Source: Bacteroidales bacterium UBA6267 (GTDB taxonomy: Bacteria; Bacteroidota; Bacteroidia; Bacteroidales; UBA1556). Taken from it: a stretch of 64,000 nt of DNA. The position numbers and the translations under genes are program-made. The stretch's first letter is position 1; each line of letters begins with the position of its first letter. Shown here piece by piece: positions 2,826 through 34,840 of the stretch. The stretch is taken from the NCBI GenBank assembly GCA_002440745.1, contig DJVB01000046.1, positions 14,593 through 78,592 on the forward strand, read 5' to 3'. The notes beneath the pieces were generated by a model, which was given only the letters and a program-made list of their open reading frames with translations, was not told the DNA's origin and searched no databases.

Positions 2826-4886
2826 ATGAAGATTAAGAAAATTGTCCTAAGTCTGTTCTGGTTTGCGATGCTTTTTTTGGCTAAAAACACATTTTCGCAA
2901 GAGCTTTCCTACGACATGATTCGCCAAAAAGTAGAAGATTTTGCCGAACGTTTTGAAGTGGAAATGGATTATGCCGACTTTGTGGATGTATTGTACTATT
3001 TTCATAAAAACCCATTAAATCTTAACGAAGCTACTGAAGAACAGTTACTTTCACTTGGTTTGCTCAACGATATGCAGATTGCAGCTTTATTGGAATACCG
3101 GCAGAAAAAGGGAAATCTTGCAACTATTTACGAACTAAAGGACATCGCAGGCTTCGATTATTTGCTTGCATACGAATTGCGTTATTTTGTTTATGTAGGA
3201 CCTCCTACAACCAAAATAAAGACTCCTGTAAAAACTTATGTAACCCGTGGCAGACACGACCTTATCATGCGACATGGCCGAGTTTTGGAAACTCAGGAAG
3301 GCTTCAGCGACACTTCCGATTCGAGATATTTGGGCTCGCCTGACAAACTCTATTTTCGCTACCGCTATACTTATCGCGACAAGCTGAGCATAGGACTCTT
3401 AGGCGAAAAAGATGCCGGCGAGGAGTTTTACAAAGGGAGCAATAAAACAGGTTTCGACTTTTATTCGGCACATGCTTTCCTCAACCGCGAAGGATTTGTG
3501 TCGAAAGTTGCCATTGGTGACTATCATTTAGAATTTGGTCAAGGTTTGACTTTGTGGTCGGGCTTGGGTTTTGGCAAATCAGTTGACGCAATGGGAACCC
3601 AAAAAGGAGCTCGAGGTTTGCGTGTGAACACCTCAGCCAACGAAAATCTCTTTATGCGTGGCGCCGCCTTTGAGCTTAATCCTTTTAAACCCGTCACGCT
3701 CACCTTGTTTTATAGCAATAAAAATTTAGATGCCGGTTTGGAAACAGATACAGCTTCGGCTGAGGAATACTTTTTTAGTTCAATTCAAGAGTCAGGCTAT
3801 CATCGGACTTTCAACGAATTATCGAAAGAAAACAGCATCAATGAGCAACTTTTTGGGGGGCATCTGAAATATTCCAAAAATGGGTTGGTTTTAGGCGCAA
3901 CAGTTTATAAAACTATCTTTGACAAACCGCTTATCAAAAATGCTGCACTTTACCAAATCCATGATTTTCAAGGAGATAATAATCTAAATACCGGAGTAAA
4001 TTTTTCTTGGCAGTTGAAACGCATTGGAGTTTTTGGAGAAATGGCTATGAGTCAAAATGGAGGCATTGCAGGGCTGGCCGGCATGGTTGCCGATATTTTC
4101 CCTCGATTGAAAATGAGCCTTATCTATCGCGATTATACCCCTGAATATCAAGTATTTTACGCTGCTCCTTTTGCCGAAGCTTCAGGAGCACACAACGAAA
4201 AAGGCTTTTATCTTGGCACACGTGTTTATGTTGGACGCAACTCTGTGATGAACGCTTACTACGATTTATTTTCGTTTCCGTGGCTTCGCTACCGTGTCGA
4301 TGCACCTTCGCATGGAAATGAATTTATGGTGGATTATAAAAAGAATATCAACCGGCATTTCGTTTTCTACAGCCGATTCCGCTCTGAAAACAAAATGCTG
4401 AACCAATCGGACGAGCTCTATATCAATCAACCTCAACCGGTTCAAAAACAAAGTCTTAGATTCAATTTCTCCTACGACTTTTCCAACGATTGGTATTTCC
4501 AAACCCGATTTGAAATCGTAAAATATCATCATCAGCCCGAAGAGCAAAAATGGGGTTATTTACTTTTTCAAGATTTTAAATATCGTCCCACCGACAAGCC
4601 TTTCGACTTTAGTATTCGCTATGCACTCTTCAACACAGATACCTACGACACAAGGATTTACGCTTATGAAAATGATGTTTTATATAAATTTTCCATTCCA
4701 GGCTACTATTACCAAGGACAGCGATATTATGTCATGTTTCATTGGGATGTTACCTCACGAATCGACTTTTGGTTTCGGTTTTCACAAACGGTTTATTTCG
4801 ATAGAGATGTAATCGGCAGCGGTCAAGACGAAATTCAAGGAAATAAAAAATCAGAAATTACCACACAGATTAGGATGAAGTTTTAG
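2826..4886 (+). CDS. helix-hairpin-helix (ComEA-like) domain-containing outer-membrane protein
   Basis: 686-aa ORF with a signal peptide. HhH-like segment 'LNEATEEQLLSLGLLNDMQIAALLEYRQKKGNLATIYELKDIAGF'. The long C-terminal region is rich in aromatic/Gly beta-strand patterns and ends in ...QIRMKF (terminal Phe typical of OM barrels). Confidence 0.65.
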   Translation: MKIKKIVLSLFWFAMLFLAKNTFSQELSYDMIRQKVEDFAERFEVEMDYADFVDVLYYFHKNPLNLNEATEEQLLSLGLLNDMQIAALLEYRQKKGNLATIYELKDIAGFDYLLAYELRYFVYVGPPTTKIKTPVKTYVTRGRHDLIMRHGRVLETQEGFSDTSDSRYLGSPDKLYFRYRYTYRDKLSIGLLGEKDAGEEFYKGSNKTGFDFYSAHAFLNREGFVSKVAIGDYHLEFGQGLTLWSGLGFGKSVDAMGTQKGARGLRVNTSANENLFMRGAAFELNPFKPVTLTLFYSNKNLDAGLETDTASAEEYFFSSIQESGYHRTFNELSKENSINEQLFGGHLKYSKNGLVLGATVYKTIFDKPLIKNAALYQIHDFQGDNNLNTGVNFSWQLKRIGVFGEMAMSQNGGIAGLAGMVADIFPRLKMSLIYRDYTPEYQVFYAAPFAEASGAHNEKGFYLGTRVYVGRNSVMNAYYDLFSFPWLRYRVDAPSHGNEFMVDYKKNINRHFVFYSRFRSENKMLNQSDELYINQPQPVQKQSLRFNFSYDFSNDWYFQTRFEIVKYHHQPEEQKWGYLLFQDFKYRPTDKPFDFSIRYALFNTDTYDTRIYAYENDVLYKFSIPGYYYQGQRYYVMFHWDVTSRIDFWFRFSQTVYFDRDVIGSGQDEIQGNKKSEITTQIRMKF

Positions 4887-4887
4887 A

Positions 4888-5075
4888 GGGCAAGGCGCAG
4901 AGGGCAGGGCGCAGAGGGCAGAAGTCAGAAGTCGGAGGGCAGAGGTCAGAGATCAGAGATCAGAGGTCAGAGATCAGAAGTCAGAGAACAGAAGGGAGTA
5001 GTATGTAGTATGTAGTATGTAGAAAATAGTAAATTGAGAATAGAGTTCAGGACAACCAACAATCAACAACAAATT
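4888..5075. repeat. phased heptanucleotide tandem array A (NNNCAGA x15, then AGTATGT x3, then CAA-rich heptamers)
   Basis: Read by hand: gggcaag gcgcaga gggcagg gcgcaga gggcaga agtcaga agtcgga gggcaga ggtcaga gatcaga gatcaga ggtcaga gatcaga agtcaga gaacaga agggagt agtatgt agtatgt agtatgt. That is 19 units (4888-5020) with no indel. It is followed by acaacca/acaatca/acaacaa. Confidence 0.9.
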
Positions 5076-5114: not shown

Positions 5115-5405
5115 TTATGGTCTTTTATTCGGATTAAGTCTATTGTGGAAACAAGATAATACCCTAACCGTTTTATTATCTTCATTGATGGTAAAATACA
5201 AGGAGTGGGGAAACTTATTTATCTTTAAAACCCTAATATTTTTGTACAGAATTCTAAAAAAAGGGTTGATTTCCAATGTGCTGAAAGCATTTTTAACTGA
5301 TGCGATGAATTTTACAGGGGCGTCCACACTATACAAAGCATAGTATTCAATAGCATTTTCTATCTCTTTTTGGGCACGTGGCGAAATAATGATTTTATAA
5401 TCCAT
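5115..5405 (-). CDS. type II toxin-antitoxin system RelE/ParE-family toxin
   Basis: 96 aa. 'YKIIISPRAQKEIENAIEYY...' N-terminus and 'RVLSCFHNRLNP' C-terminus are typical of Bacteroidota ParE-like toxins. It overlaps the upstream small gene by 11 nt. Confidence 0.8.
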   Translation of the reverse strand: MDYKIIISPRAQKEIENAIEYYALYSVDAPVKFIASVKNAFSTLEINPFFRILYKNIRVLKINKFPHSLYFTINEDNKTVRVLSCFHNRLNPNKRP

Positions 5406-5631
5406 ACTTATTATTGAGCTGATTGATAGACTCTTTGGCAGTTAGATAAGTGCTTTCATCTTCCTGCATTCGTTCATCTAAAACAGCTTTCATATCAGCC
5501 GAAAGTTCAAAATAACTATCGTCCTCTTCCACAATGATAGAAATGGGCTTAGATTTAAAAGCAGCCTTGATGGCATCTAAAATGTCGGTACTAACGTCCT
5601 GTGCTGATGTCAAATGAAAAGTCGTTTGCAT
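5395..5631 (-). CDS. putative cognate antitoxin
   Basis: 78-aa acidic protein located immediately upstream of, and overlapping, the ParE-like gene. This is classic TA architecture. No DNA-binding motif recognised by eye. Confidence 0.55.
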   Translation of the reverse strand: MQTTFHLTSAQDVSTDILDAIKAAFKSKPISIIVEEDDSYFELSADMKAVLDERMQEDESTYLTAKESINQLNNKYGL

Positions 5632-5637
5632 AATATT

Positions 5638-5898
5638 TTATTTTGAAAATTGTATATTTTGGTCAAAAATGCTTTGAAACTTTAGCTTGGTAAGATTACT
5701 TTCAACAATTTCAGTGAATGTCTGATTGATGTCTTGCGCCTGATGATTGATTTTCCGTAATATATCAAAATCAAAATTACCAACTATCTTGACGGCAAAT
5801 GGCACTATAAAAACTCGGTTCAAAAACATATAGATTTTCCGAATTATATCTTTAGGTTCTTGAATCTGCTTAGTATTAGTACTTACCTGCATAAGCAT
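5638..5898 (-). CDS. hypothetical small protein, first gene of the TA cassette transcription unit
   Basis: 86-aa ORF lying 6 nt upstream of the antitoxin gene on the same strand. A TAATTTTG box sits just upstream. Confidence 0.3.
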   Translation of the reverse strand: MLMQVSTNTKQIQEPKDIIRKIYMFLNRVFIVPFAVKIVGNFDFDILRKINHQAQDINQTFTEIVESNLTKLKFQSIFDQNIQFSK

Positions 5899-5971: not shown

Positions 5972-6175
5972 GAGCAGGGAGCATGGCGCAGGGGGCAGAG
6001 ATCAGAGGGCAGAGATCAGAGGTCAGAAAGTAGTACGAAGAGTTCGGAAAAAGCAAAAAACATTTACCCTACGAAGCCCTTGATCTCCAAAGCTTCGGCG
6101 AAGGGGGGAGGCTAAACCCAAAACAAAAAACAAAAAACAAAAAACACCAACCAACCAACCCTAATAATTTCCCTC
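5972..6175. repeat. phased heptanucleotide tandem array B (NNNCAGR x8, then AAAAAAC x3 and CCAA-type heptamers)
   Basis: gagcagg gagcatg gcgcagg gggcaga gatcaga gggcaga gatcaga ggtcaga at 5972-6027, then aagtagt..., and later aaaaaac aaaaaac aaaaaac accaacc aaccaac. Same strand and same module order as array A. Confidence 0.9.
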
Positions 6176-26244: not shown

Positions 26245-27048
26245 TTACAAATTCTTTAACCGGAAATTGTTTTGAAAAGCAATCATTTCAAAAAGCATGA
26301 TTTGCTTCGCTTTTGCGGCATTGGAAAACTCGAAATAACCCACGATGGGAATTTCACTGACTAAATTACTTGTTATCATGCTTGAACCGGTACATTTTTG
26401 GGAGGCAAATTCTAAGATTGAAGAAGTATATTCTAAACCGGCATCATCAACAATTCGCTGATTATTAGCCCGTAAGATGAGTTTTATATCTTTGGATGTT
26501 TTATTTGTAACCTTAAAATAAAATCGGAGATTATCCCCTTCAACTTTTATTTCGGTAATCTGTAGAAACACATCCTTTTCAATTTCAATGGTATTTTTCT
26601 CTAATTTAGGTTTAGCCACAGCAATATCCTTTAATCGAATAAAAGCATTGTTTACTTTGATTTGAAGCAGCTTAGCAAGATCCATTTCGGCAACATTATT
26701 CTGCTTAAAAACTATACAAGCTTGCAATGGAATATCCTTAATGAACGTCTTTTTAACGAATGAGGAGCCGGAGATTTTTTCCTCACCAACAAAAACTACC
26801 GTAGAAGTATATTCATTTCCTTTTCCATCAAAAAGTTTATGCTCATTGGCTCGAATCATAAGCACAGTATCCCTATCGTTTGTGTTTGTTATCAGAAAGT
26901 AGAATCGAAGTTCCTCACCAATCGACTTAACATCTTGTAGCTCGAAACGAACATCAGAATTAGCATCGTTAATAGCCTCATTAGCAAATGTTTCTATTGA
27001 ATTTAAAGAGAAAATCAAAAAAAGAAATAGGGTAAAAATTTTGCGCAT
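26245..27048 (-). CDS. hypothetical secreted protein with internal two-domain duplication
   Basis: Start taken at MRKIFTLFLFLIFSLNS (ATG at 27048). Two homologous halves ('ELRFYFLITNTNDRDTVLMIRANEHKLFDGKGNEYTS' and 'NLRFYFKVTNKTSKDIKLILRANNQRIVDDAGLEYTS'). Confidence 0.5.
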   Translation of the reverse strand: MRKIFTLFLFLIFSLNSIETFANEAINDANSDVRFELQDVKSIGEELRFYFLITNTNDRDTVLMIRANEHKLFDGKGNEYTSTVVFVGEEKISGSSFVKKTFIKDIPLQACIVFKQNNVAEMDLAKLLQIKVNNAFIRLKDIAVAKPKLEKNTIEIEKDVFLQITEIKVEGDNLRFYFKVTNKTSKDIKLILRANNQRIVDDAGLEYTSSILEFASQKCTGSSMITSNLVSEIPIVGYFEFSNAAKAKQIMLFEMIAFQNNFRLKNL

Positions 27049-27404
27049 GGTATTCAGTTTTAGGAAAAATGTTAGAGTTACCAAAATTAGGAAAAAATTC
27101 TTTGTGTTGGGTTTTGTATTTAAATGTTCTTTGAATGTGCATTTTTATACGAAAATTAGGGGACTATTCAAGAAAATCAAGAATTGATTTCGTACTGCAA
27201 AGGATTATTTAAAAACAATGTCACCCCTTTTGGGTTTCTGGTCGTGTTACTTGTTTCCTATAATATTGCCACCTCTCCGGGGATTGACAGCTATAAGTGA
27301 AAGGTAAGAATTCGTTTAAAGGGAAGAGTTCTTATCAACAATTCCGGCGCATCTTTCTATTGAAGTTGATTTGTTTGGAAAAGAATTTTTTACTAATTTG
27401 ACTT

Positions 27405-28334
27405 TTAGCTACATATTTCAATTCGCTTATCTACAATATCTTGCAGTTTTATCTTCTGATTTTCCGGCAAAAAACTATTCTGTATCCACCAATTTATATT
27501 ATCCTTTTTGGCAAGGAATTTTTCGTAAATATGATCTCTTTGTTTTTCGTTGAGCGACAGATTCTTTGCTAAAAAATCGAAATCTGACCTTTCAATTTTG
27601 TTCTTCTTCCCATTTATGGTCAAGCACATTTGTTCCGATTCATTTTTTATCACTAATAATGTGGATATTAAATCATAGGCCGGACTTAATGTAAAACCTC
27701 CATAAATATCTTCCAACAAGGAAAAATTTTTTAAATGCATGTCGGAATTCCCAATAATATAATTGAATAGCACCAATTCAAAATATTTCAACGCATCAAT
27801 TCCTGATTGTGAAGAATATTGTCGGATAGTTCGTCCTGTATTTTCGTAACTACCTCTATATTTGTGTTCTGTGAGTGTTTCGGTAAGCTGACATAAATCT
27901 TCAGAAGCCAATTTACCGTTCTTCACTCTATCAAAGCGCTTAGTAATATAAGCCAACCTATTAGATGGCAATCTAATTAGACTATGCTTGGCCGTTTTTA
28001 TATCCAATTCCGCAGCTAAATGCATGCATAAATCTTCATTTTCAGGTAAGGATGGATAAACCTCGCTTGGCGGCTTGATAATAAAATTGCTTTTATGATC
28101 GACAATAGTAAAACGAAGACTTTTGTTTTTTTCTTCCAACCACAAGCTTAATTTGGGCTGAACTCCCGTAATCGCAATATTTGCTTCAATCACTTCCCTT
28201 GCATGCTTCTTCAATTCCTTTTCATCAATATCTATGGCTGGAATTTGTTTCAATCCAAACTCCTTCTTCAAACATTTAGGATGAAAATCAATTTCAGCTT
28301 TAATAAGGGGTTTGTAGCATATTAAACAGTTCAT
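27405..28334 (-). CDS. HipA-family Ser/Thr kinase toxin lacking the N-terminal subdomain (HipT-like)
   Basis: 309 aa. Gly-rich loop 'ITGVQPKLSL', catalytic 'IGNSDMHLKNFSLL', and Mg-binding 'SPAYDLIST'. N-terminal Cys/His motif 'CLICYKPL...FHPKCLKKEFG'. The start lies 1 nt after the stop of the upstream gene. Confidence 0.85.
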   Translation of the reverse strand: MNCLICYKPLIKAEIDFHPKCLKKEFGLKQIPAIDIDEKELKKHAREVIEANIAITGVQPKLSLWLEEKNKSLRFTIVDHKSNFIIKPPSEVYPSLPENEDLCMHLAAELDIKTAKHSLIRLPSNRLAYITKRFDRVKNGKLASEDLCQLTETLTEHKYRGSYENTGRTIRQYSSQSGIDALKYFELVLFNYIIGNSDMHLKNFSLLEDIYGGFTLSPAYDLISTLLVIKNESEQMCLTINGKKNKIERSDFDFLAKNLSLNEKQRDHIYEKFLAKKDNINWWIQNSFLPENQKIKLQDIVDKRIEICS

Positions 28335-28335
28335 A

Positions 28336-28653
28336 TCAATTTGTTTTTATGATAGTTACGTCACCAATATTATCTTTGCACAGTGTGAGCAAAAGGTTCA
28401 TTCGGTCTCTTGCATCCAATTTCCAATTTTCGATGGCCAACTGCAAAAGCCATCCCTCCGGAATCAATCCATCAAAAAACGGTATCATGCTTTCCTTAAC
28501 AAACTCTTCTTCCCTTAAAGGTAAGGTTTTACTTATCGCACCATAAACCGGTTTGCTTAAGTAGGAGGCATCGTATTGAAAATGAATACCCATTTCATCT
28601 TCCCAAACAATGCCAGCTTTTGTGTCTTTTTTATAAACCAATCCTTTCTTCAT
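28336..28653 (-). CDS. HipA N-terminal-subdomain protein (HipS-like)
   Basis: 105 aa from the ATG at 28653 (the ORF-track start at 28668 is a TTG). 'ISKTLPLREEEF...MIPFFDGLIPEGWLLQLA...LLLTLCKDNIGDV' matches the HipA N-terminal (Couple_hipA) domain. Confidence 0.8.
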   Translation of the reverse strand: MKKGLVYKKDTKAGIVWEDEMGIHFQYDASYLSKPVYGAISKTLPLREEEFVKESMIPFFDGLIPEGWLLQLAIENWKLDARDRMNLLLTLCKDNIGDVTIIKTN

Positions 28654-28654
28654 G

Positions 28655-29080
28655 TCACTGTTCTTCAATGTTTTGAATGTTTGAATGTATTATTTCTTCA
28701 GTAAGACCGGCATCCTTAGTTTGTTGGAAACTAATTGCACTGCTATTTGGCAAAAAACGCCAGGCAATAATTTCATTTTCCCTTTTAATCTCCTCTATAA
28801 TAACACCGTACTTAATAGTTTTGTTGTTCAAAGTGATTTTCACTGCTTTTTTAAAAAACCTCCAATAAACAGTATAAGGATCAATGTTTTGCCTTCGCGG
28901 GGATAAAGAATAGCCAAACAGTGACAAAACCTGATTGACTTTATTTAGCTGAACAGATTCTTTACCGCGTTCCAATTCACGAATAAACCGGATTCCAACC
29001 CCCGCTGTTTTTGCAAATTCTTCTTGAGTCAAATTTAGCCTTTTGCGTTGATACTTTATAAAAGATGATATTTCATTCAT
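28655..29080 (-). CDS. XRE-family HTH regulator with C-terminal extension (HipB-like)
   Basis: HTH 'LNLTQEEFAKTAGVGIRFIRELERGKESVQLNKVNQVLSLFG'. The start is placed at the ATG at 29080 (MNEISSF...), because a TATATTTG -7 box lies inside the longer ORF-track start. The stop TGA is 1 nt from the hipS-like ATG. Confidence 0.75.
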   Translation of the reverse strand: MNEISSFIKYQRKRLNLTQEEFAKTAGVGIRFIRELERGKESVQLNKVNQVLSLFGYSLSPRRQNIDPYTVYWRFFKKAVKITLNNKTIKYGVIIEEIKRENEIIAWRFLPNSSAISFQQTKDAGLTEEIIHSNIQNIEEQ

Positions 29081-29088
29081 AAATCTAT

Positions 29089-29180
29089 ACCTTTTCGGGT
29101 GCAAATATACCACATTTTTATAAATTAATACCGAACGGGTGTAATTTATTAATATTTAAACAAATTATCACCGAACGGGT
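29089..29180. promoter_or_regulatory. three 40-bp-phased ACC-N5/6-GGGT boxes plus a -7 box (TATATTTG, minus strand, 29102-29109): putative hip operator/promoter
   Basis: 'accttttcgggt' at 29089-29100, 'accgaacgggt' at 29130-29140, and 'accgaacgggt' at 29170-29180. The CGGGT ends fall at 29100, 29140 and 29180. Confidence 0.5.
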
Positions 29181-29343
29181 ATATTTTTGGTAAATTAATA
29201 TCACCCCTTCCGGATTGGTTTGGTACTGCGGGATTTCTTAACGTTTTCTCTAATATCTTGATTTTTAGTGGTTTCAAAATCCACAGGAGTGACTATAAGA
29301 AGCATTTTCACCTCCATTTCTGACTATTCTTGGCTTAATCTTT

Positions 29344-29832
29344 TCAATTGGATTTACTATATTTCTCCATTATTTTGATTAGTGATTCATTCTTAGAATC
29401 CTCCTTTACACAATTCAAATAGAGTTCAAAATAAGTTTTTGCTTTTTGGTAATCCTTTAAATAGATATATGTCCACACTATCCAATCGAAAGATCTCGCT
29501 TTTAATTCCTCAGAAAGCTCAGCACTTTTGAGCAAATAGAAAATAGATTTTAGAAGCATTGTAGAATCTTTTTTGATCACATAACCATAGTAATGCAACG
29601 CAACTCCATAATCATAATAAAACTCGACAAGCCCCGTATCTATCTGTGATTCATCAATTTGACTCAATTGTTCATAAGTAAAAACAATGTTATCGCTATT
29701 TATTATCGCACAACTTAAAGTGTGAACCGAATCTCGAACCTTTAAGTAATTCATCTTCGATTGCCCATTTAACAAACCTGTTATCACAACAAGCCAAACA
29801 AGAATCAAAAGTTTAAATAATGTATTTTTCAT
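29344..29832 (-). CDS. hypothetical secreted protein (TPR-like helical)
   Basis: 162-aa ORF with signal peptide MKNTLFKLLILVWLVVITGLLNGQ. Helical repeats rich in Tyr/Leu. Confidence 0.4.
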   Translation of the reverse strand: MKNTLFKLLILVWLVVITGLLNGQSKMNYLKVRDSVHTLSCAIINSDNIVFTYEQLSQIDESQIDTGLVEFYYDYGVALHYYGYVIKKDSTMLLKSIFYLLKSAELSEELKARSFDWIVWTYIYLKDYQKAKTYFELYLNCVKEDSKNESLIKIMEKYSKSN

Positions 29833-29976
29833 GTGTTTACTTCAAATTGTTTAATACTAAGGTCTCCCGTCCAAATAGCTATCGGAATCGGGAGGTTCAG
29901 ATAAATATCGGAATCGCCAACGAAAAAAAATCATTTTCTGTAGGTTTGAATATTTATTCTTATGGTTCATTTCATC

Positions 29977-30405
29977 TTATTCAATCCTCAACTTCAGTAC
30001 GCCGGCTTTAATTTTAAAAAGCTTGTATTGGGATGTAGTTTTTTGCCATTCTTCTTCAATCCAATGTCCGTGTTTTTTCAGAATCTGAATCACTTCTTGC
30101 GGGTCTTCTGCCGAAATCATCACAGGAATAAAATGTTGGTTGATTCGTCTGATATTTGGCCCAAATTGCCTCGATATTAACACATTAACGCTTTCATTTT
30201 TCAGCAGTTGTATGATTGCCTCGGCTTTGCTTTGATCGCCATGATTATCCTCCGAGTGCATATCCTTGTGGGGATTTGGAATTTTTTTCATGAATTCGAT
30301 TTTCTCCGAATCACAACTGTAAACAACAAAGAAATCAGCATCTCCAAAATGGGCATTTGGAAACTGATTTTCAGTATCTAAAGAAAAAGCACATTGTAAC
30401 GACAT
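29977..30405 (-). CDS. NifB/NifX-family (dinitrogenase FeMo-cofactor-binding-like) small protein
   Basis: 142 aa. 'AHFGDADFFVVY', '...KAEAIIQLLKNESVNVLISRQFGPN' and 'HFIPVM' fit the Nitro_FeMo-Co fold pattern (HFG...F, then a Rossmann-like G...). Confidence 0.45.
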   Translation of the reverse strand: MSLQCAFSLDTENQFPNAHFGDADFFVVYSCDSEKIEFMKKIPNPHKDMHSEDNHGDQSKAEAIIQLLKNESVNVLISRQFGPNIRRINQHFIPVMISAEDPQEVIQILKKHGHWIEEEWQKTTSQYKLFKIKAGVLKLRIE

Positions 30406-30552
30406 ATATAGAATTTTATGATTTATCTTGATTCTTCCTCTCTCAAGAGTTTGATTTACACGACAAAGATAAGAATCCTAACTCATAAATCGGATATAAT
30501 TAAGGCCGTCTTATTTAGAATGAGTTTTGATTTGTTTTATTGAAAAAACTCC

Positions 30553-30792
30553 GGCGAAGGGGCGATTGTGCGAACAGGCGATTGGGCGAGGGTACGATTG
30601 GACGATGGTTTGATTGGACGAGAGTACGAAAGGACGAGGGTACGAAAGGATGATGGGGCGATTGTGCGAAGGGGCGATTGTGCGAACGGGCGATTGTGCG
30701 AACGGGCGATTGTGCGAGGGTACGATGGGACGATTGGACGATGGTTTGATTGGACGAGAGTATGAGGGTACGAAAGGACGAGGGTATGAAAG
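30553..30792. repeat. perfectly phased octanucleotide tandem array C (30 units, consensus KRCGANNG)
   Basis: Hand-phased from 30553: ggcgaagg ggcgattg tgcgaaca ggcgattg ggcgaggg tacgattg gacgatgg tttgattg gacgagag tacgaaag gacgaggg tacgaaag gatgatgg ggcgattg tgcgaagg ggcgattg tgcgaacg ggcgattg tgcgaacg ggcgattg tgcgaggg tacgatgg gacgattg gacgatgg tttgattg gacgagag tatgaggg tacgaaag gacgaggg tatgaaag. There is no indel. G4 and A5 are invariant, and G8 is present in 29 of 30 units. Confidence 0.92.
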
Positions 30793-30924
30793 TGCAATTC
30801 CTGCTTGGTGATTGGGGCTATGCTATCGGAAAATAACGAACAACGAATTTCCAATTCTCCTCCCTGCCACTGTTCATGAACTAAATTCCAAAAAATCTAA
30901 TCTTAAAAAATCTGTAAACTCACC

Positions 30925-32139
30925 CTACTTAATGATCCAATACTCAGGATTTTGTGGGGTGTTGGTCTTGGTTGACCATAGTTCAAAATGCAGGATGGTT
31001 TCGCCGGTTTCGTTAGATGTACCCACCAAGCCAAGCTCTTCTTTTGTGTTCACTTTTTGCCCTTCCACAACATAAACTTCCGAAAGATTGCTATAAACCG
31101 TAAAATAGCTTCCATGTTGAATTAAAACAGCTTTGAAGCGGCCTAACTGTATTATTCTCACTACCTTTCCCTCAAATACTGCACGAGCGCGAGCCATTTT
31201 TTCGGTACGAATATCCAATCCTTTATTATCCACAGTCACATGCAATTCGGGATGCGGATGCGACCCAAACGAGCTGATAATTTGACCACGCTCCAACGGC
31301 CACGGCAGTTTGCCTTTATTGCCTGCAAAACTCTCTGCAAGCAGTTTTTCTTCAGGAGTCATTGGCAACCTTCCGGCCGCTTTATCTGCTTTTCCGGCCT
31401 TTTTCATTTGAGCTTCAATGATTTTCTTAATCTCATCGTTTAACTTTTGCCATTCCTTTTGCTTTTGTGACAACTGCTGCTTCAGCTCTTTTTCCTTCTG
31501 CGAAATTTGTTTGACGGCAACCTCCTTGCGGCTCTTGTCGTGCATCAGATTCGAGGCCTCTTTCTCTTTAGAAGTCATCAAATCGGTGCGGTCTTGCTTG
31601 ATTCGCTCCAATGCTGCTATTCTTTGGGTGAGCTCCGCCTCCTTATTCACAATATTTTTCGCTGCTTCCTGACGCGCTTCCCCGACGGCTCGAAGATATT
31701 TGATTCGATTATACGCCTGATAAAAGTCGCTTGACGAAAAAACATACATCCATTGGTCGGCGGCATTTCTCGATTTATAGGTCTGATAAATCAATTTACC
31801 ATATTCTTCTTTCAACTTTTTCAAAGAAGCCTCAAGCTCTTCTATTTGTTTCTTAGCCAGACCAATTTCATTATTTGCCTGATTTATCTCACGGTTATAA
31901 ACTTCAATCAACTCTTGTCGGCTCTTGATTTGTTTGTTCAACAAGCTGATTTCGCTAATCGATACTTTCTTTTGGTTTTCGGTTTCTTTCAGAAGTTTTC
32001 GGGTATAGCCAATCTCCTTTTCCAAATTGCGTTTCGATTTTTCTAAAGCAGTTTTGTTTTGGCTCCAAACCGACGAAGGGAAAAGCAGTCCGATAAACAG
32101 GCTAACCAATAACAAATATTTTCCGTTTAGTATCATCAT
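30925..32139 (-). CDS. murein hydrolase activator EnvC-like (coiled coil plus degenerate M23/LytM domain)
   Basis: 404 aa. Signal peptide, a long Lys/Glu/Gln-rich coiled coil, and a C-terminal LytM fold ('GLDIRT...VLIQHGSYFTVYSNL...ILHFELW'). Confidence 0.8.
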   Translation of the reverse strand: MMILNGKYLLLVSLFIGLLFPSSVWSQNKTALEKSKRNLEKEIGYTRKLLKETENQKKVSISEISLLNKQIKSRQELIEVYNREINQANNEIGLAKKQIEELEASLKKLKEEYGKLIYQTYKSRNAADQWMYVFSSSDFYQAYNRIKYLRAVGEARQEAAKNIVNKEAELTQRIAALERIKQDRTDLMTSKEKEASNLMHDKSRKEVAVKQISQKEKELKQQLSQKQKEWQKLNDEIKKIIEAQMKKAGKADKAAGRLPMTPEEKLLAESFAGNKGKLPWPLERGQIISSFGSHPHPELHVTVDNKGLDIRTEKMARARAVFEGKVVRIIQLGRFKAVLIQHGSYFTVYSNLSEVYVVEGQKVNTKEELGLVGTSNETGETILHFELWSTKTNTPQNPEYWIIK

Positions 32140-32345
32140 GCCAATTGATTGTAAAATCCAGATTTATCAAGTAAAAATAATTCTCAAAAGAATTGAAAAT
32201 TATACGATTAAACGAATTAATAAACAATAAATTGTTGAAATAAGCTTGAGGCAAAATAATTACTATTCACGTGATTCGATTTTACCCTCGGTTATAGTAA
32301 TAAGAAACAAACAGTTAATACAAACCGACTTGCTTTAATCGCTCA

Positions 32346-33182
32346 TCAAAAAGTTTGCAAGGTATAACTTTCAGGAATCTTAAACGGGAAGCTTACTTCG
32401 GTGTTTTTTTCGATTTTGGTAAATTTAAAATCTAACGATAACTCTTTCACGCCAATGAATTTAAAAGCAATTTCAGTAGGGAAAAGTCCGGCGTGGTTTT
32501 CAAAATTGCTATAAACAGCCTCCACTTTCTTATTTGGATTTCGGACTTGTTTGAGGTCCTGCTCAAGGATTCGCAACGAGCTTTTGTCCAATTTTATTTT
32601 CTGAATCAACACCTTAGATAAGTCATCGTCAGATTTTACATATTGTTTCAATTTATGCCTTCCGATGGTGTTAAGCACAAAAAATTCAGGTCTGATTTCA
32701 AGATTAAATTTATCGGTTTCGTAATAAGGAATGTCGTTTCCGAGAATCAAAGCTTGCAGCATATCGAAGTCAATATCGGTGTTCAGATTATAATTGATAT
32801 ACCGAAAATCCGTAAGAAAATACTTACGACTCAGGCGATTAATCATTTTCACTGTATCGGGAGTTACCATAACACGCGCCACTTCAATATTCATTACGGT
32901 GATACTGCACCAAATCAAGCTGTCGTTTAATAAGCGCATTTGCCCGTTGAAATTTTGCTTTGTTCCTTCGTAATTATAAATCCCGCTGAAACGCGCTACT
33001 AATGTTTCATATTCAAATTCGGCAGCTTTCATGGAGTTAAACACACTGTCCACACGGCTGAGCTTTACCTCGCTGCGTTTCGGTGTTTCCGGTTTGCGGC
33101 TTTTACAAGCAGAAAAAAATAGTAAAACGATTGCTAAAAATAAAATAGGCTTCCAAAAATGAAACCTCGGTTGAAAACTCAT
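32346..33182 (-). CDS. DUF4292-like lipoprotein
   Basis: 278 aa. Lipobox 'LLFFSACKSRK'. Its position between a TPR lipoprotein and an EnvC-like gene matches a cluster I recall as conserved in Bacteroidota. 4-nt ATGA overlap with the upstream gene. Confidence 0.5.
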   Translation of the reverse strand: MSFQPRFHFWKPILFLAIVLLFFSACKSRKPETPKRSEVKLSRVDSVFNSMKAAEFEYETLVARFSGIYNYEGTKQNFNGQMRLLNDSLIWCSITVMNIEVARVMVTPDTVKMINRLSRKYFLTDFRYINYNLNTDIDFDMLQALILGNDIPYYETDKFNLEIRPEFFVLNTIGRHKLKQYVKSDDDLSKVLIQKIKLDKSSLRILEQDLKQVRNPNKKVEAVYSNFENHAGLFPTEIAFKFIGVKELSLDFKFTKIEKNTEVSFPFKIPESYTLQTF

Positions 33183-34840
33183 TTGTCGTTAATTTTAAGA
33201 ATATTGTTTAAACGGATTATTTCAGGATTGTTAGAATCGACAATTAAACCCTTTTCAATCCAGTATTTAGCCTCTTTCCATTGATTATCAAGAATATAAA
33301 ACTCGGCAAGTGTGGCGATATAATTTGCATTTCGCAAGTTTAGTTCAACAGCGTTTTTGGCTAAACTATAAGCACGATCTTTATCTTTCTTCTTGTGATA
33401 GAGATGCTTAGCATACGCATTTAGGGCCTGACCATTATTCGGGTCTGCCATAAGTGCCTTTTCAAAACTCACTTCGGCTTCCGGATGTCGTTGCAGCGAA
33501 TCACGAATCATGCCCATAAGTGTATAAATTTCAACCTTTTGCTCGTTTTTATACACGAAACTTAGCCCCAGATTTAACGAAGCTTCGGCCTCTTGATAAT
33601 TCCCAAGCTTATATTGCGACAGTCCGTTAAAATAATATATTTCAGACTGTTGCGGAAATAATTCCATGGCGCGGCGAGCATAAGACTGCATGGTTTTGTA
33701 GTCCTCCAAATCACGACTTAAAAGCACCACTTGTTTCCATATCGGGTAACGAGTCGAATCAATAGAAATGACTCTACGATATAGTTTTACGGCTTCGGAA
33801 TAAGCACTATCACGAACCAAATAGTCGGCCTTCATGGTGAGGGCTTTGGGATCGTTAGGGTTTGCTTCAACCAACATGCCTAAAAGAGTGTCCGACTGAC
33901 TTCTGAGCTTTTCATTTTCCGGATATTTATCCAATAAAGCATACAGATTCACCATAATTTCGATCTTCTCATCAATGTCCAATCCTTTGCTCTGCATAGC
34001 TTTTTTTGTTTCGGCATACGACCTCTCAGGCTGATTTTGCGAAGCATACCACGATGCTAACACTACATGTATTTTACCATCTTCAGGATTGATTTCCAAC
34101 ACTTTATTATAAAATTCAATAGCTTTTTCAGTTTGGCCGTTGCGCATATAAATATCGGCAATGACTCCATAATATCGCTCATTTTGTGGATATTTCTGAA
34201 TCAGTTTTTCCATTTCAGCAATTGCTTCCTTGGGCTTTCCGGCTTTTAAGTATAAATCTTTTCGCTTTAAAGCAATATCAGGATTTTCGCCAAACTTACT
34301 CTCAATCAGGTTATAAGCTTTAATAGACTTGGCCAAATTACCTGTACGAAGATTTGCGTTCACCAAACGGTAATAGTTGATTTGGTCGTCAGGAAACTTT
34401 TCAACCAACGCTTCGCAAATGTCCAACGACTTCTTATATTGCTTGTTTTCAACATAGATCTGCGAAAGATTTATCATCACCCACGAGTTGTTTGGAGCTA
34501 GTTTATAAGCTTTCTCGCCAAACTCCAAAGCTTTGGCCGGCTCCTTTTGTTGCAAAAGTCTTGAAAGCTCGTAATAGGCCGCAAAATGTTTGGGATTATT
34601 TTTAACGATTTGATTATAAGCATTTAAAGCACCTTCATAATCTCCTTTCCAAAAAAGCCGTTTGGCTTCAATAAAAACCGCCGAATTTCGATAGTCATCT
34701 TCAGTAACCGCCTGGCTATCTGCATTTTTCGCAGTAGTTGAGCGACTTAGACCACAACTTGTCAGGAGGCTGAGAATTAAAAACAAAAAGGCGATATGAT
34801 TTCCGAGTCTCTTCAAGCTAATCAATTGTTGAATAATCAC
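33179..34840 (-). CDS. tetratricopeptide-repeat lipoprotein
   Basis: 553 aa. Lipobox 'SLLTSCG' and more than 10 TPR-like units (e.g. 'AIEFYNKVLEINPEDGKIHVVLASWY'). The ORF-track start is a GTG, so the exact start is uncertain. Confidence 0.8.
   Translation of the reverse strand: MIIQQLISLKRLGNHIAFLFLILSLLTSCGLSRSTTAKNADSQAVTEDDYRNSAVFIEAKRLFWKGDYEGALNAYNQIVKNNPKHFAAYYELSRLLQQKEPAKALEFGEKAYKLAPNNSWVMINLSQIYVENKQYKKSLDICEALVEKFPDDQINYYRLVNANLRTGNLAKSIKAYNLIESKFGENPDIALKRKDLYLKAGKPKEAIAEMEKLIQKYPQNERYYGVIADIYMRNGQTEKAIEFYNKVLEINPEDGKIHVVLASWYASQNQPERSYAETKKAMQSKGLDIDEKIEIMVNLYALLDKYPENEKLRSQSDTLLGMLVEANPNDPKALTMKADYLVRDSAYSEAVKLYRRVISIDSTRYPIWKQVVLLSRDLEDYKTMQSYARRAMELFPQQSEIYYFNGLSQYKLGNYQEAEASLNLGLSFVYKNEQKVEIYTLMGMIRDSLQRHPEAEVSFEKALMADPNNGQALNAYAKHLYHKKKDKDRAYSLAKNAVELNLRNANYIATLAEFYILDNQWKEAKYWIEKGLIVDSNNPEIIRLNNILKINDK

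Follow-up and report, generated by a model that had tools for sequence, protein, structure and literature searches.

A degenerate octanucleotide array in the spacer between an EnvC-like and a NifX-like gene of Bacteroidales bacterium UBA6267

Between an EnvC-like peptidase gene and a NifX-like gene of Bacteroidales bacterium UBA6267 lies a run of octanucleotides that keep perfect register while varying in sequence, which raises the question of whether the register is held by selection or is simply what the growth of a repeat leaves behind. The run is considered here within a 64,000-nt window, i.e. the whole stretch of contig DJVB01000046.1 (positions 14,593 to 78,592) that was analysed. An initial annotation of this DNA had favoured selection on helical or positional periodicity. 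The reading preferred here is that the array is probably a young spacer repeat, made by slippage and tolerated without a sequence-specific role. Most likely it represents a lineage-specific, degenerate case of an established repeat class, the long simple sequence repeats (SSRs; 5–11-nt units), and is comparable to the cyanobacterial STRR.

Architecture, internal history and authenticity of the array

The array occupies positions 30553–30792 and consists of 30 units of 8 nt with the consensus KRYGANNG, the plus strand being the G-rich one (106 G, 28 C). Phasing from 30553 bears out the 30 units of the initial annotation, without a single indel, as well as the fixed positions reported there: G4 and A5 occur in all 30 units and G8 in 29. 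At position 3, 25 units have C and five have T; position 1 is only ever G or T, and position 2 is A, G or T. The plus strand was rightly described as C-poor outside CG and GC dinucleotides, since 27 of the 28 C residues fall within CpG; the 27 CpG of the array compare with an average of 9.4 in 240 nt elsewhere in the window, and no other 240-nt stretch of the window is as strongly G/C-skewed. Alternations of GGCGATTG with TGCGAACG and of TACGAAAG with GACGAGGG, also pointed out before, are present, and it is because of these dimers that self-match is higher at a period of 16 (0.76–0.82) than at a period of 8 (0.61–0.66). Tandem Repeats Finder (TRF) accordingly reports the array at periods 8, 16, 24 and 32.

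In that short units follow one another head to tail far beyond chance length, the array is a tandem repeat. The high identity between copies that marks a clean SSR is lacking, and with 18 distinct unit types among its 30 units it is degenerate rather than perfect. Four consecutive phased YGANNG units are matched 24 times (overlapping) in the window, every time within the array, and never in 100 dinucleotide-preserving shuffles of the window; the window holds no second array of the octamer motif. The units abut with no spacers between them, in keeping with the earlier conclusion that this is not CRISPR. CRISPR arrays consist of 23–50-nt repeats separated by unique spacers of similar length.

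A higher-order repeat of about 80 bp had also been described. The repeat is real, but it is larger than that: units 1–12 (30553–30648, plus strand) recur in units 13–30 (30649–30792, plus strand), which a unit-level alignment resolves into the first copy plus six whole-unit insertions. Seven of the 12 aligned unit pairs are identical, and the other five have one substitution each. A 33-nt exact repeat is found at 30594–30626 and again at 30730–30762, both on the plus strand and offset by 136 nt. Every length difference inside the array is a multiple of 8. If only whole units are gained or lost at each step, phase is preserved without selection, and block copies that differ by substitutions and whole-unit insertions present exactly the pattern left by in-register slippage or unequal recombination. 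The argument that strict phase combined with variation speaks for selection on periodicity thus finds no support in an array with a duplicated 12-unit block, non-independent units and, as discussed below, array-free homologous loci in three relatives.

Shared ancestry of the units bears on the seemingly invariant core as well. A minimum spanning tree joins the 18 unit types with as few as 20 substitutions, which fall on octamer positions 1 to 8 as 6, 3, 4, 0, 0, 3, 3 and 1. Were 20 changes spread evenly, the probability of finding some three positions with no more than one change between them would be ~0.047 after post-hoc correction. The invariance of positions 4, 5 and 8 is therefore marginal once this ancestry is allowed for, and is suggestive but not compelling.

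Neither strand of the array is notably structured. Over its 240 nt the sense RNA (minus strand) has a minimum free energy of −9.4 kcal/mol, and 181 of 200 shuffles fold more stably (z = +1.1); the G-rich DNA strand also folds worse than shuffles (z = +1.8). There is no match in the array to a G3+ quadruplex motif (at least four G3+ tracts, loops of 1–7 or up to 12 nt) and only three two-tetrad (G2+) candidates, and no inverted partner of the array occurs within 4 kb. Readings as a quadruplex, a hairpin or one half of an inverted pair are thus rejected. An Rfam search of 29000–32500 returned only a chance snoRNA-like match (E 0.44).

The possibility of an assembly artefact, raised in the initial annotation, can be set aside in favour of a real array, which is present in two assemblies of the source sample, agrees in its long form with the unitig depths and is matched exactly by fragments from unrelated sludge samples. 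The JGI assembly 3300001592 contains a contig (L002) that corresponds to window positions 26980–33402, with an identical array, no mismatches and six one-base gaps, all outside the array. These gaps break the M23 peptidase (EnvC-like) and HipA-like reading frames in the JGI assembly, both of which are intact in the window, and they are probably homopolymer sequencing errors of that assembly.

A Logan contig from the source sample (L001) has 13 units rather than 30, with exactly 136 nt missing between the copies of the 33-nt repeat. This short form contains no 31-mer absent from the 30-unit form, and with its deletion lying across the 33-nt repeat the best explanation for it is collapse during k=31 assembly. 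In run X1, also from the source sample, the 33-nt repeat forms a unitig of its own with a depth of 16.7, compared with 9.7 for the 163-nt internal unitig and 10.2–10.5 for the flanks, values that fit a population with two copies of this repeat and the long form. The 13-unit form is thus rejected as evidence of strain variation. Contigs from the unrelated 2021 sludge metagenomes X8, X9 and X10 match 30442–30655 and 30672–30857 with zero differences and span both junctions that are specific to the long form. Runs X5–X7 and X12 yield just short, low-depth contigs that end at or near the array; the 33-nt internal repeat makes k=31 assemblies collapse or break there. In this comparison of unit number, made on the short contigs that public runs consist of, depths and independent samples fit one long form, and no variation of the array is visible between these strains, which are nearly identical. 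Because the sludge strains hardly differ in their flanks either, the comparison has little power on constraint.

The spacer and its counterparts in relatives

Both genes that border the spacer are encoded on the minus strand. The upstream neighbour, at 30925–32139, is the EnvC-like gene of the M23 peptidase family (PF01551), and the downstream neighbour, at 29977–30405, is the NifX-like gene (PF02579, dinitrogenase FeMo-cofactor-binding domain). The array is 148 nt from the NifX-like ATG (30405) and 133 nt from the M23 stop codon (30925), in agreement with the distances given previously. The 130 nt next to the NifX-like gene (30406–30535, minus strand) are conserved with the closest relative and contain TATCTTTG at 30464–30471, which fits TAnnTTTG. 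We take TAnnTTTG to be the Bacteroidota-type −7 promoter consensus, and this occurrence to be, presumably, the −7 box of the NifX-like gene. The array ends 82 nt upstream of the box and lies neither inside a genuine ORF nor between core promoter elements. A sigma-70 promoter scan gave nothing significant, and 29900–31100 contains no intrinsic terminator-like site. Directly after the array on the minus strand, at 30511–30540, is a 7-bp AT-rich inverted repeat (GAGTTTT ... AAAACTC, with a 16-nt loop), which is too weak to be an intrinsic terminator.

Related loci were found with the M23 protein as query. The closest relative found, L124 (GCA_016937295.1), shares the gene order from dUTPase to the NifX-like gene with the window; identity is 89% for the M23 protein, 87% for the NifX-like protein and 80–82% for the DNA. 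Its spacer after the M23 gene is 185 nt long and has no array. Between the two, homology ends with the stop codon of the M23 gene and is regained at window position 30535, 18 nt from the edge of the array. The species-specific segment in between (30536–30925), composed of the array and a further 133 nt that are unique, takes the place of 58 nt in L124. In L126 (M23 protein 69% identical) no NifX-like gene follows the M23 gene and there is no array. L127 (62%) has a spacer of 128 nt and a split NifX-like gene, again with no array. TRF found no array of three or more copies on the 9-kb loci of the relatives.

The array is lineage-specific, being absent from the orthologous sites of L124, L126 and L127, and array-free loci in relatives are what the initial annotation had itself named as evidence against its selective reading. 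L124 lacks the array but keeps the promoter-proximal 130 nt, and it follows that the array is a recent gain of this species and is unneeded for the local promoter. The absence from relatives shows that the array is young, not that it is useless.

In the relatives with 62% identity (L127, at 5371–5791, and L128), the NifX-like gene is split into pieces of 58 and 53 aa, and is either a likely pseudogene or the product of a sequencing error shared by two runs.

Similar arrays in other genomes and known repeat classes

Arrays with similar units are widespread. A scan for six consecutive KRYGANNG units, with one genome per prokaryotic species, returned at least 120 loci. The matches listed come from Longimicrobium and other Gemmatimonadota, Chloroflexota (Caldilineae and Anaerolineae), Saprospiraceae, Bacteroidales and Ignavibacteria, as well as from cyanobacteria, Planctomycetota, actinomycetes and others, and the same pattern is present in 49 viral contigs. 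Tandem GGCGATTG (n ≥3) occurs in at least 120 metagenome contigs, mostly of 55–75% GC (L129–L248). Comparison of the window with 120 array-bearing genome loci revealed no flank homology, only array-to-array matches, and these are thus independent arrays rather than orthologous loci. The most similar array among the matches listed belongs to a Bacteroidales metagenome-assembled genome (L030, DAOORA010000101.1) and mixes GACGATAG, GATGATGG and GACGAGAG units. It lies 115 nt upstream of an unrelated 739-aa gene, and its G-rich strand is antisense, like that of the window array. At 1–480 of L030, a block of about 190 nt is tandemly duplicated; it comprises 9-nt repeats (GAGTCAAAT), a unique linker and a mixed GAYGAKRG octamer array.

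These scans demanded a YGA core and therefore cannot show that the core is special. An unbiased set is provided by 170 other TRF arrays (period 7–9, at least four copies) in the flanks of the listed array loci. YGA is present on the G-rich strand of 31% of them, compared with 27% after the letters of each unit are shuffled, which indicates that the core is not a shared motif; the idea of a YGA core common to the whole repeat class is rejected by these 170 arrays, found without the pattern. Genomes that have one such array have many, built from varied units without a common core. In a crude ORF-based tally of the genes around the arrays, all four arrangements occur, divergent pairs least often. 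The gene end that faces a listed array is somewhat more often a 3′ than a 5′ end, by rough counts of 74 to 44 in genome contigs and 63 to 50 in metagenome contigs. Gene calling for the tally of array orientation is unreliable in high-GC contigs, where many arrays lie inside spurious ORFs. The rarity of divergent pairs and the 3′-end bias agree with what has been reported for G-rich heptamers (PMC4692102).

In addition to its one octamer array, the window contains two heptamer array regions with other units, at 4885–5075 and 5972–6175, in which CAGAGRK-type repeats are followed by GTAGTAT and accompanied by AAAACAA and CCAA types. Both regions are purine-rich on the plus strand, as is the octamer array, and they flank three small minus-strand ORFs (5115–5898). 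The first starts at the stop codon of a plus-strand gene (2826–4886).

The statement that no described element of the Bacteroidota resembles the array does not hold, as long intergenic heptamer arrays of up to 43 copies are on record for cyanobacteria, Beggiatoaceae and five Bacteroidetes, and the close relatives of their carriers have shorter spacers without repeats (PMC4679880). These STRR/TAACTGA arrays, whose carriers include Gramella, Aequorivita and Paludibacter, are like the window array in being long, intergenic, present in Bacteroidetes, mixed with other short repeats and missing from the spacers of close relatives. Period and unit are different, and an 8-nt unit places the window array outside the STRR proper, which are defined by a heptanucleotide unit and numerous copies dispersed through one genome. 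TAACTGA sets often abut start codons in the sense orientation (PMC4679880), whereas the window array stands 148 nt away with its G-rich strand antisense.

The broader class is that of the long SSRs with 5–11-nt units of Mrazek, Guo and Shah (2007), for which, in the summary given in PMC4679880, polymerase slippage was proposed. As far as that summary describes them, they share with the window array an intergenic location, short units and a sporadic, lineage-specific occurrence, and genes are free of units whose length is not divisible by 3, as is the case here. Heptamers are the commonest class in the same summary, whereas the unit of the window array is 8 nt; with its many unit types and its 12-unit block, the array resembles a small satellite more than a clean SSR. 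The G-rich heptamers of Xanthomonas (GGGAATC) and Nostoc (GGGGAYT), which are of unknown function, are found mostly between co-oriented genes (PMC4692102). Like the window array they have one G-rich strand, are rare between divergent ORFs and are often antisense upstream of an ORF. They are, however, quadruplex-forming heptamers, whereas the window array has an 8-nt unit and lacks four G3 tracts with short loops.

Origin of the array and possible roles

The anatomy of the array, its authenticity, its absence from relatives and the wide occurrence of similar arrays are demonstrated here; from them we infer slippage as the mechanism and the lack of a function for the product. An octamer or 16-mer seed in the EnvC-like/NifX-like spacer would have grown into a block of about 12 units of mixed type; this block would then have been duplicated, with whole units inserted later, and slipped-strand mispairing together with in-register unequal recombination may have driven the process. 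The array does not reach into the conserved promoter-proximal stretch before the NifX-like gene, and most probably it is spacer DNA that is tolerated and serves no sequence-specific function. Some observations sit less easily with this reading. The identity of the array across independent sludge metagenomes would also fit constraint, although the flanks are near-identical too. G4 and A5 do not vary in 30 units, and the L030 array keeps the YGA core, although it was found with a pattern that required that core.

A role in cis on RNA would make the array a Rho-loading (rut) site that ends read-through from the EnvC-like gene and so insulates a NifX-like gene with a promoter of its own. Such sites are C-rich, G-poor, unstructured RNA. 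The sense RNA of the array has 106 C and 28 G (C/G 3.8) over 240 nt downstream of a stop codon, is nearly unstructured and has the composition of a rut site (C>G over at least ~80 nt). No intrinsic terminator-like site follows the EnvC-like gene, and the NifX-like gene retains its own conserved, predicted −7 box. The likeness is one of composition only, as rut sites are not tandem repeats whereas the array is. The closest relative also does without the array, orientation within the class is not fixed (a rough tally based on ORFs finds the G-rich strand equally often in sense and in antisense orientation to neighbouring genes), and the heptamer array at 4885–5075 is rich in purines on the sense strand of the gene before it. 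On these sequence features, Rho loading is possible but appears unlikely. It may instead be that the whole 390-nt species-specific segment is the scar or cargo of a recombination or insertion event, and did not grow in place. The 133 nt of unique sequence that accompany the array are likewise absent from L124, the array and unique flank of L030 were duplicated as one block, and similar arrays are found on viral contigs. However, the unique flank has no second copy in the window, terminal inverted repeats and a recognisable target duplication are both lacking, and a history of internal duplication is visible within the array itself; an origin of this kind seems quite unlikely.

Phased sites for a binding protein or a DNA methyltransferase, with selection on positions 3–5 and 8, could be invoked for the near-invariance of G4, A5 and G8, for the 27 CpG and for the fact that the changes at position 3 are all C to T. 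This is very unlikely, as the invariance is marginal after correction for ancestry, three relatives are without the array and there is no second array of the motif in the window; in addition, a period of 8 or 16 nt does not keep step with the 10.5-bp helix, the other arrays in array-rich genomes have no common core, and the window shows no CpG depletion (o/e 1.08) and hence no sign of decay through CpG methylation. Tandem repeats upstream of a gene are also the classical substrate of contingency loci, and a phase-variable unit number that switches NifX-like expression might have been suspected from the 13 units of Logan contig L001. With that form a k=31 artefact, with X1 depths and the junctions in independent samples fitting the long form, and with the array positioned 82 nt upstream of the predicted −7 box, neither between promoter elements nor in an ORF, the suspicion is highly improbable. 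Finally, the 105-aa minus-strand ORF (30537–30854) is open across the whole array, and three units of 8 nt equal eight codons, so that the period does not exclude coding in the way that had been argued. That this ORF is a real protein with an 8-residue repeat is nevertheless hardly conceivable: a Pfam search with it gave no match, both strands are open for lack of stop codons, and the ORF is missing in L124. The array is non-coding, as the initial annotation held, given the lack of a family match, frames that are open merely through unit composition and a segment that is missing from the closest relative. The three ORFs of 65–105 aa that span the array, on both strands, are spurious; they are open because the units hold few or no stop codons.

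On the preferred reading of a young repeat made by slippage, the array alone is of minor importance, as a further short intergenic tandem repeat that is dispensable at its locus. The wider class may be of greater interest. G-rich arrays with 7–9-nt units are very common in uncultured environmental bacteria and may influence termination or expression. It could be that the G-rich GGYGANNG arrays found from Bacteroidales to Gemmatimonadota, Chloroflexota, cyanobacteria and viral contigs are tunable cis elements that recur across phyla, in the antisense orientation giving transcripts with a C-rich, unstructured, Rho-loading and insulating segment and in the sense orientation giving G-rich tracts with the opposite effect, or else that they are products of a shared, sequence-biased mechanism that prefers these units. 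Either proposal is distinctly improbable.

For metagenome assembly the array is of some practical consequence, as its 33-nt repeat yields a false 13-unit variant in k=31 assemblies and its units spawn spurious ORFs on both strands. A further G-rich array, with different units (such as GGCGATGG, GCGAGATA and GCGAGCTG), is found in X1 contig record 2 (7360 nt, depth 8.1), which aligned at window positions 30577–30637. The depth of this contig resembles that of the array-bearing genome, and its array could be a second array of the same organism.
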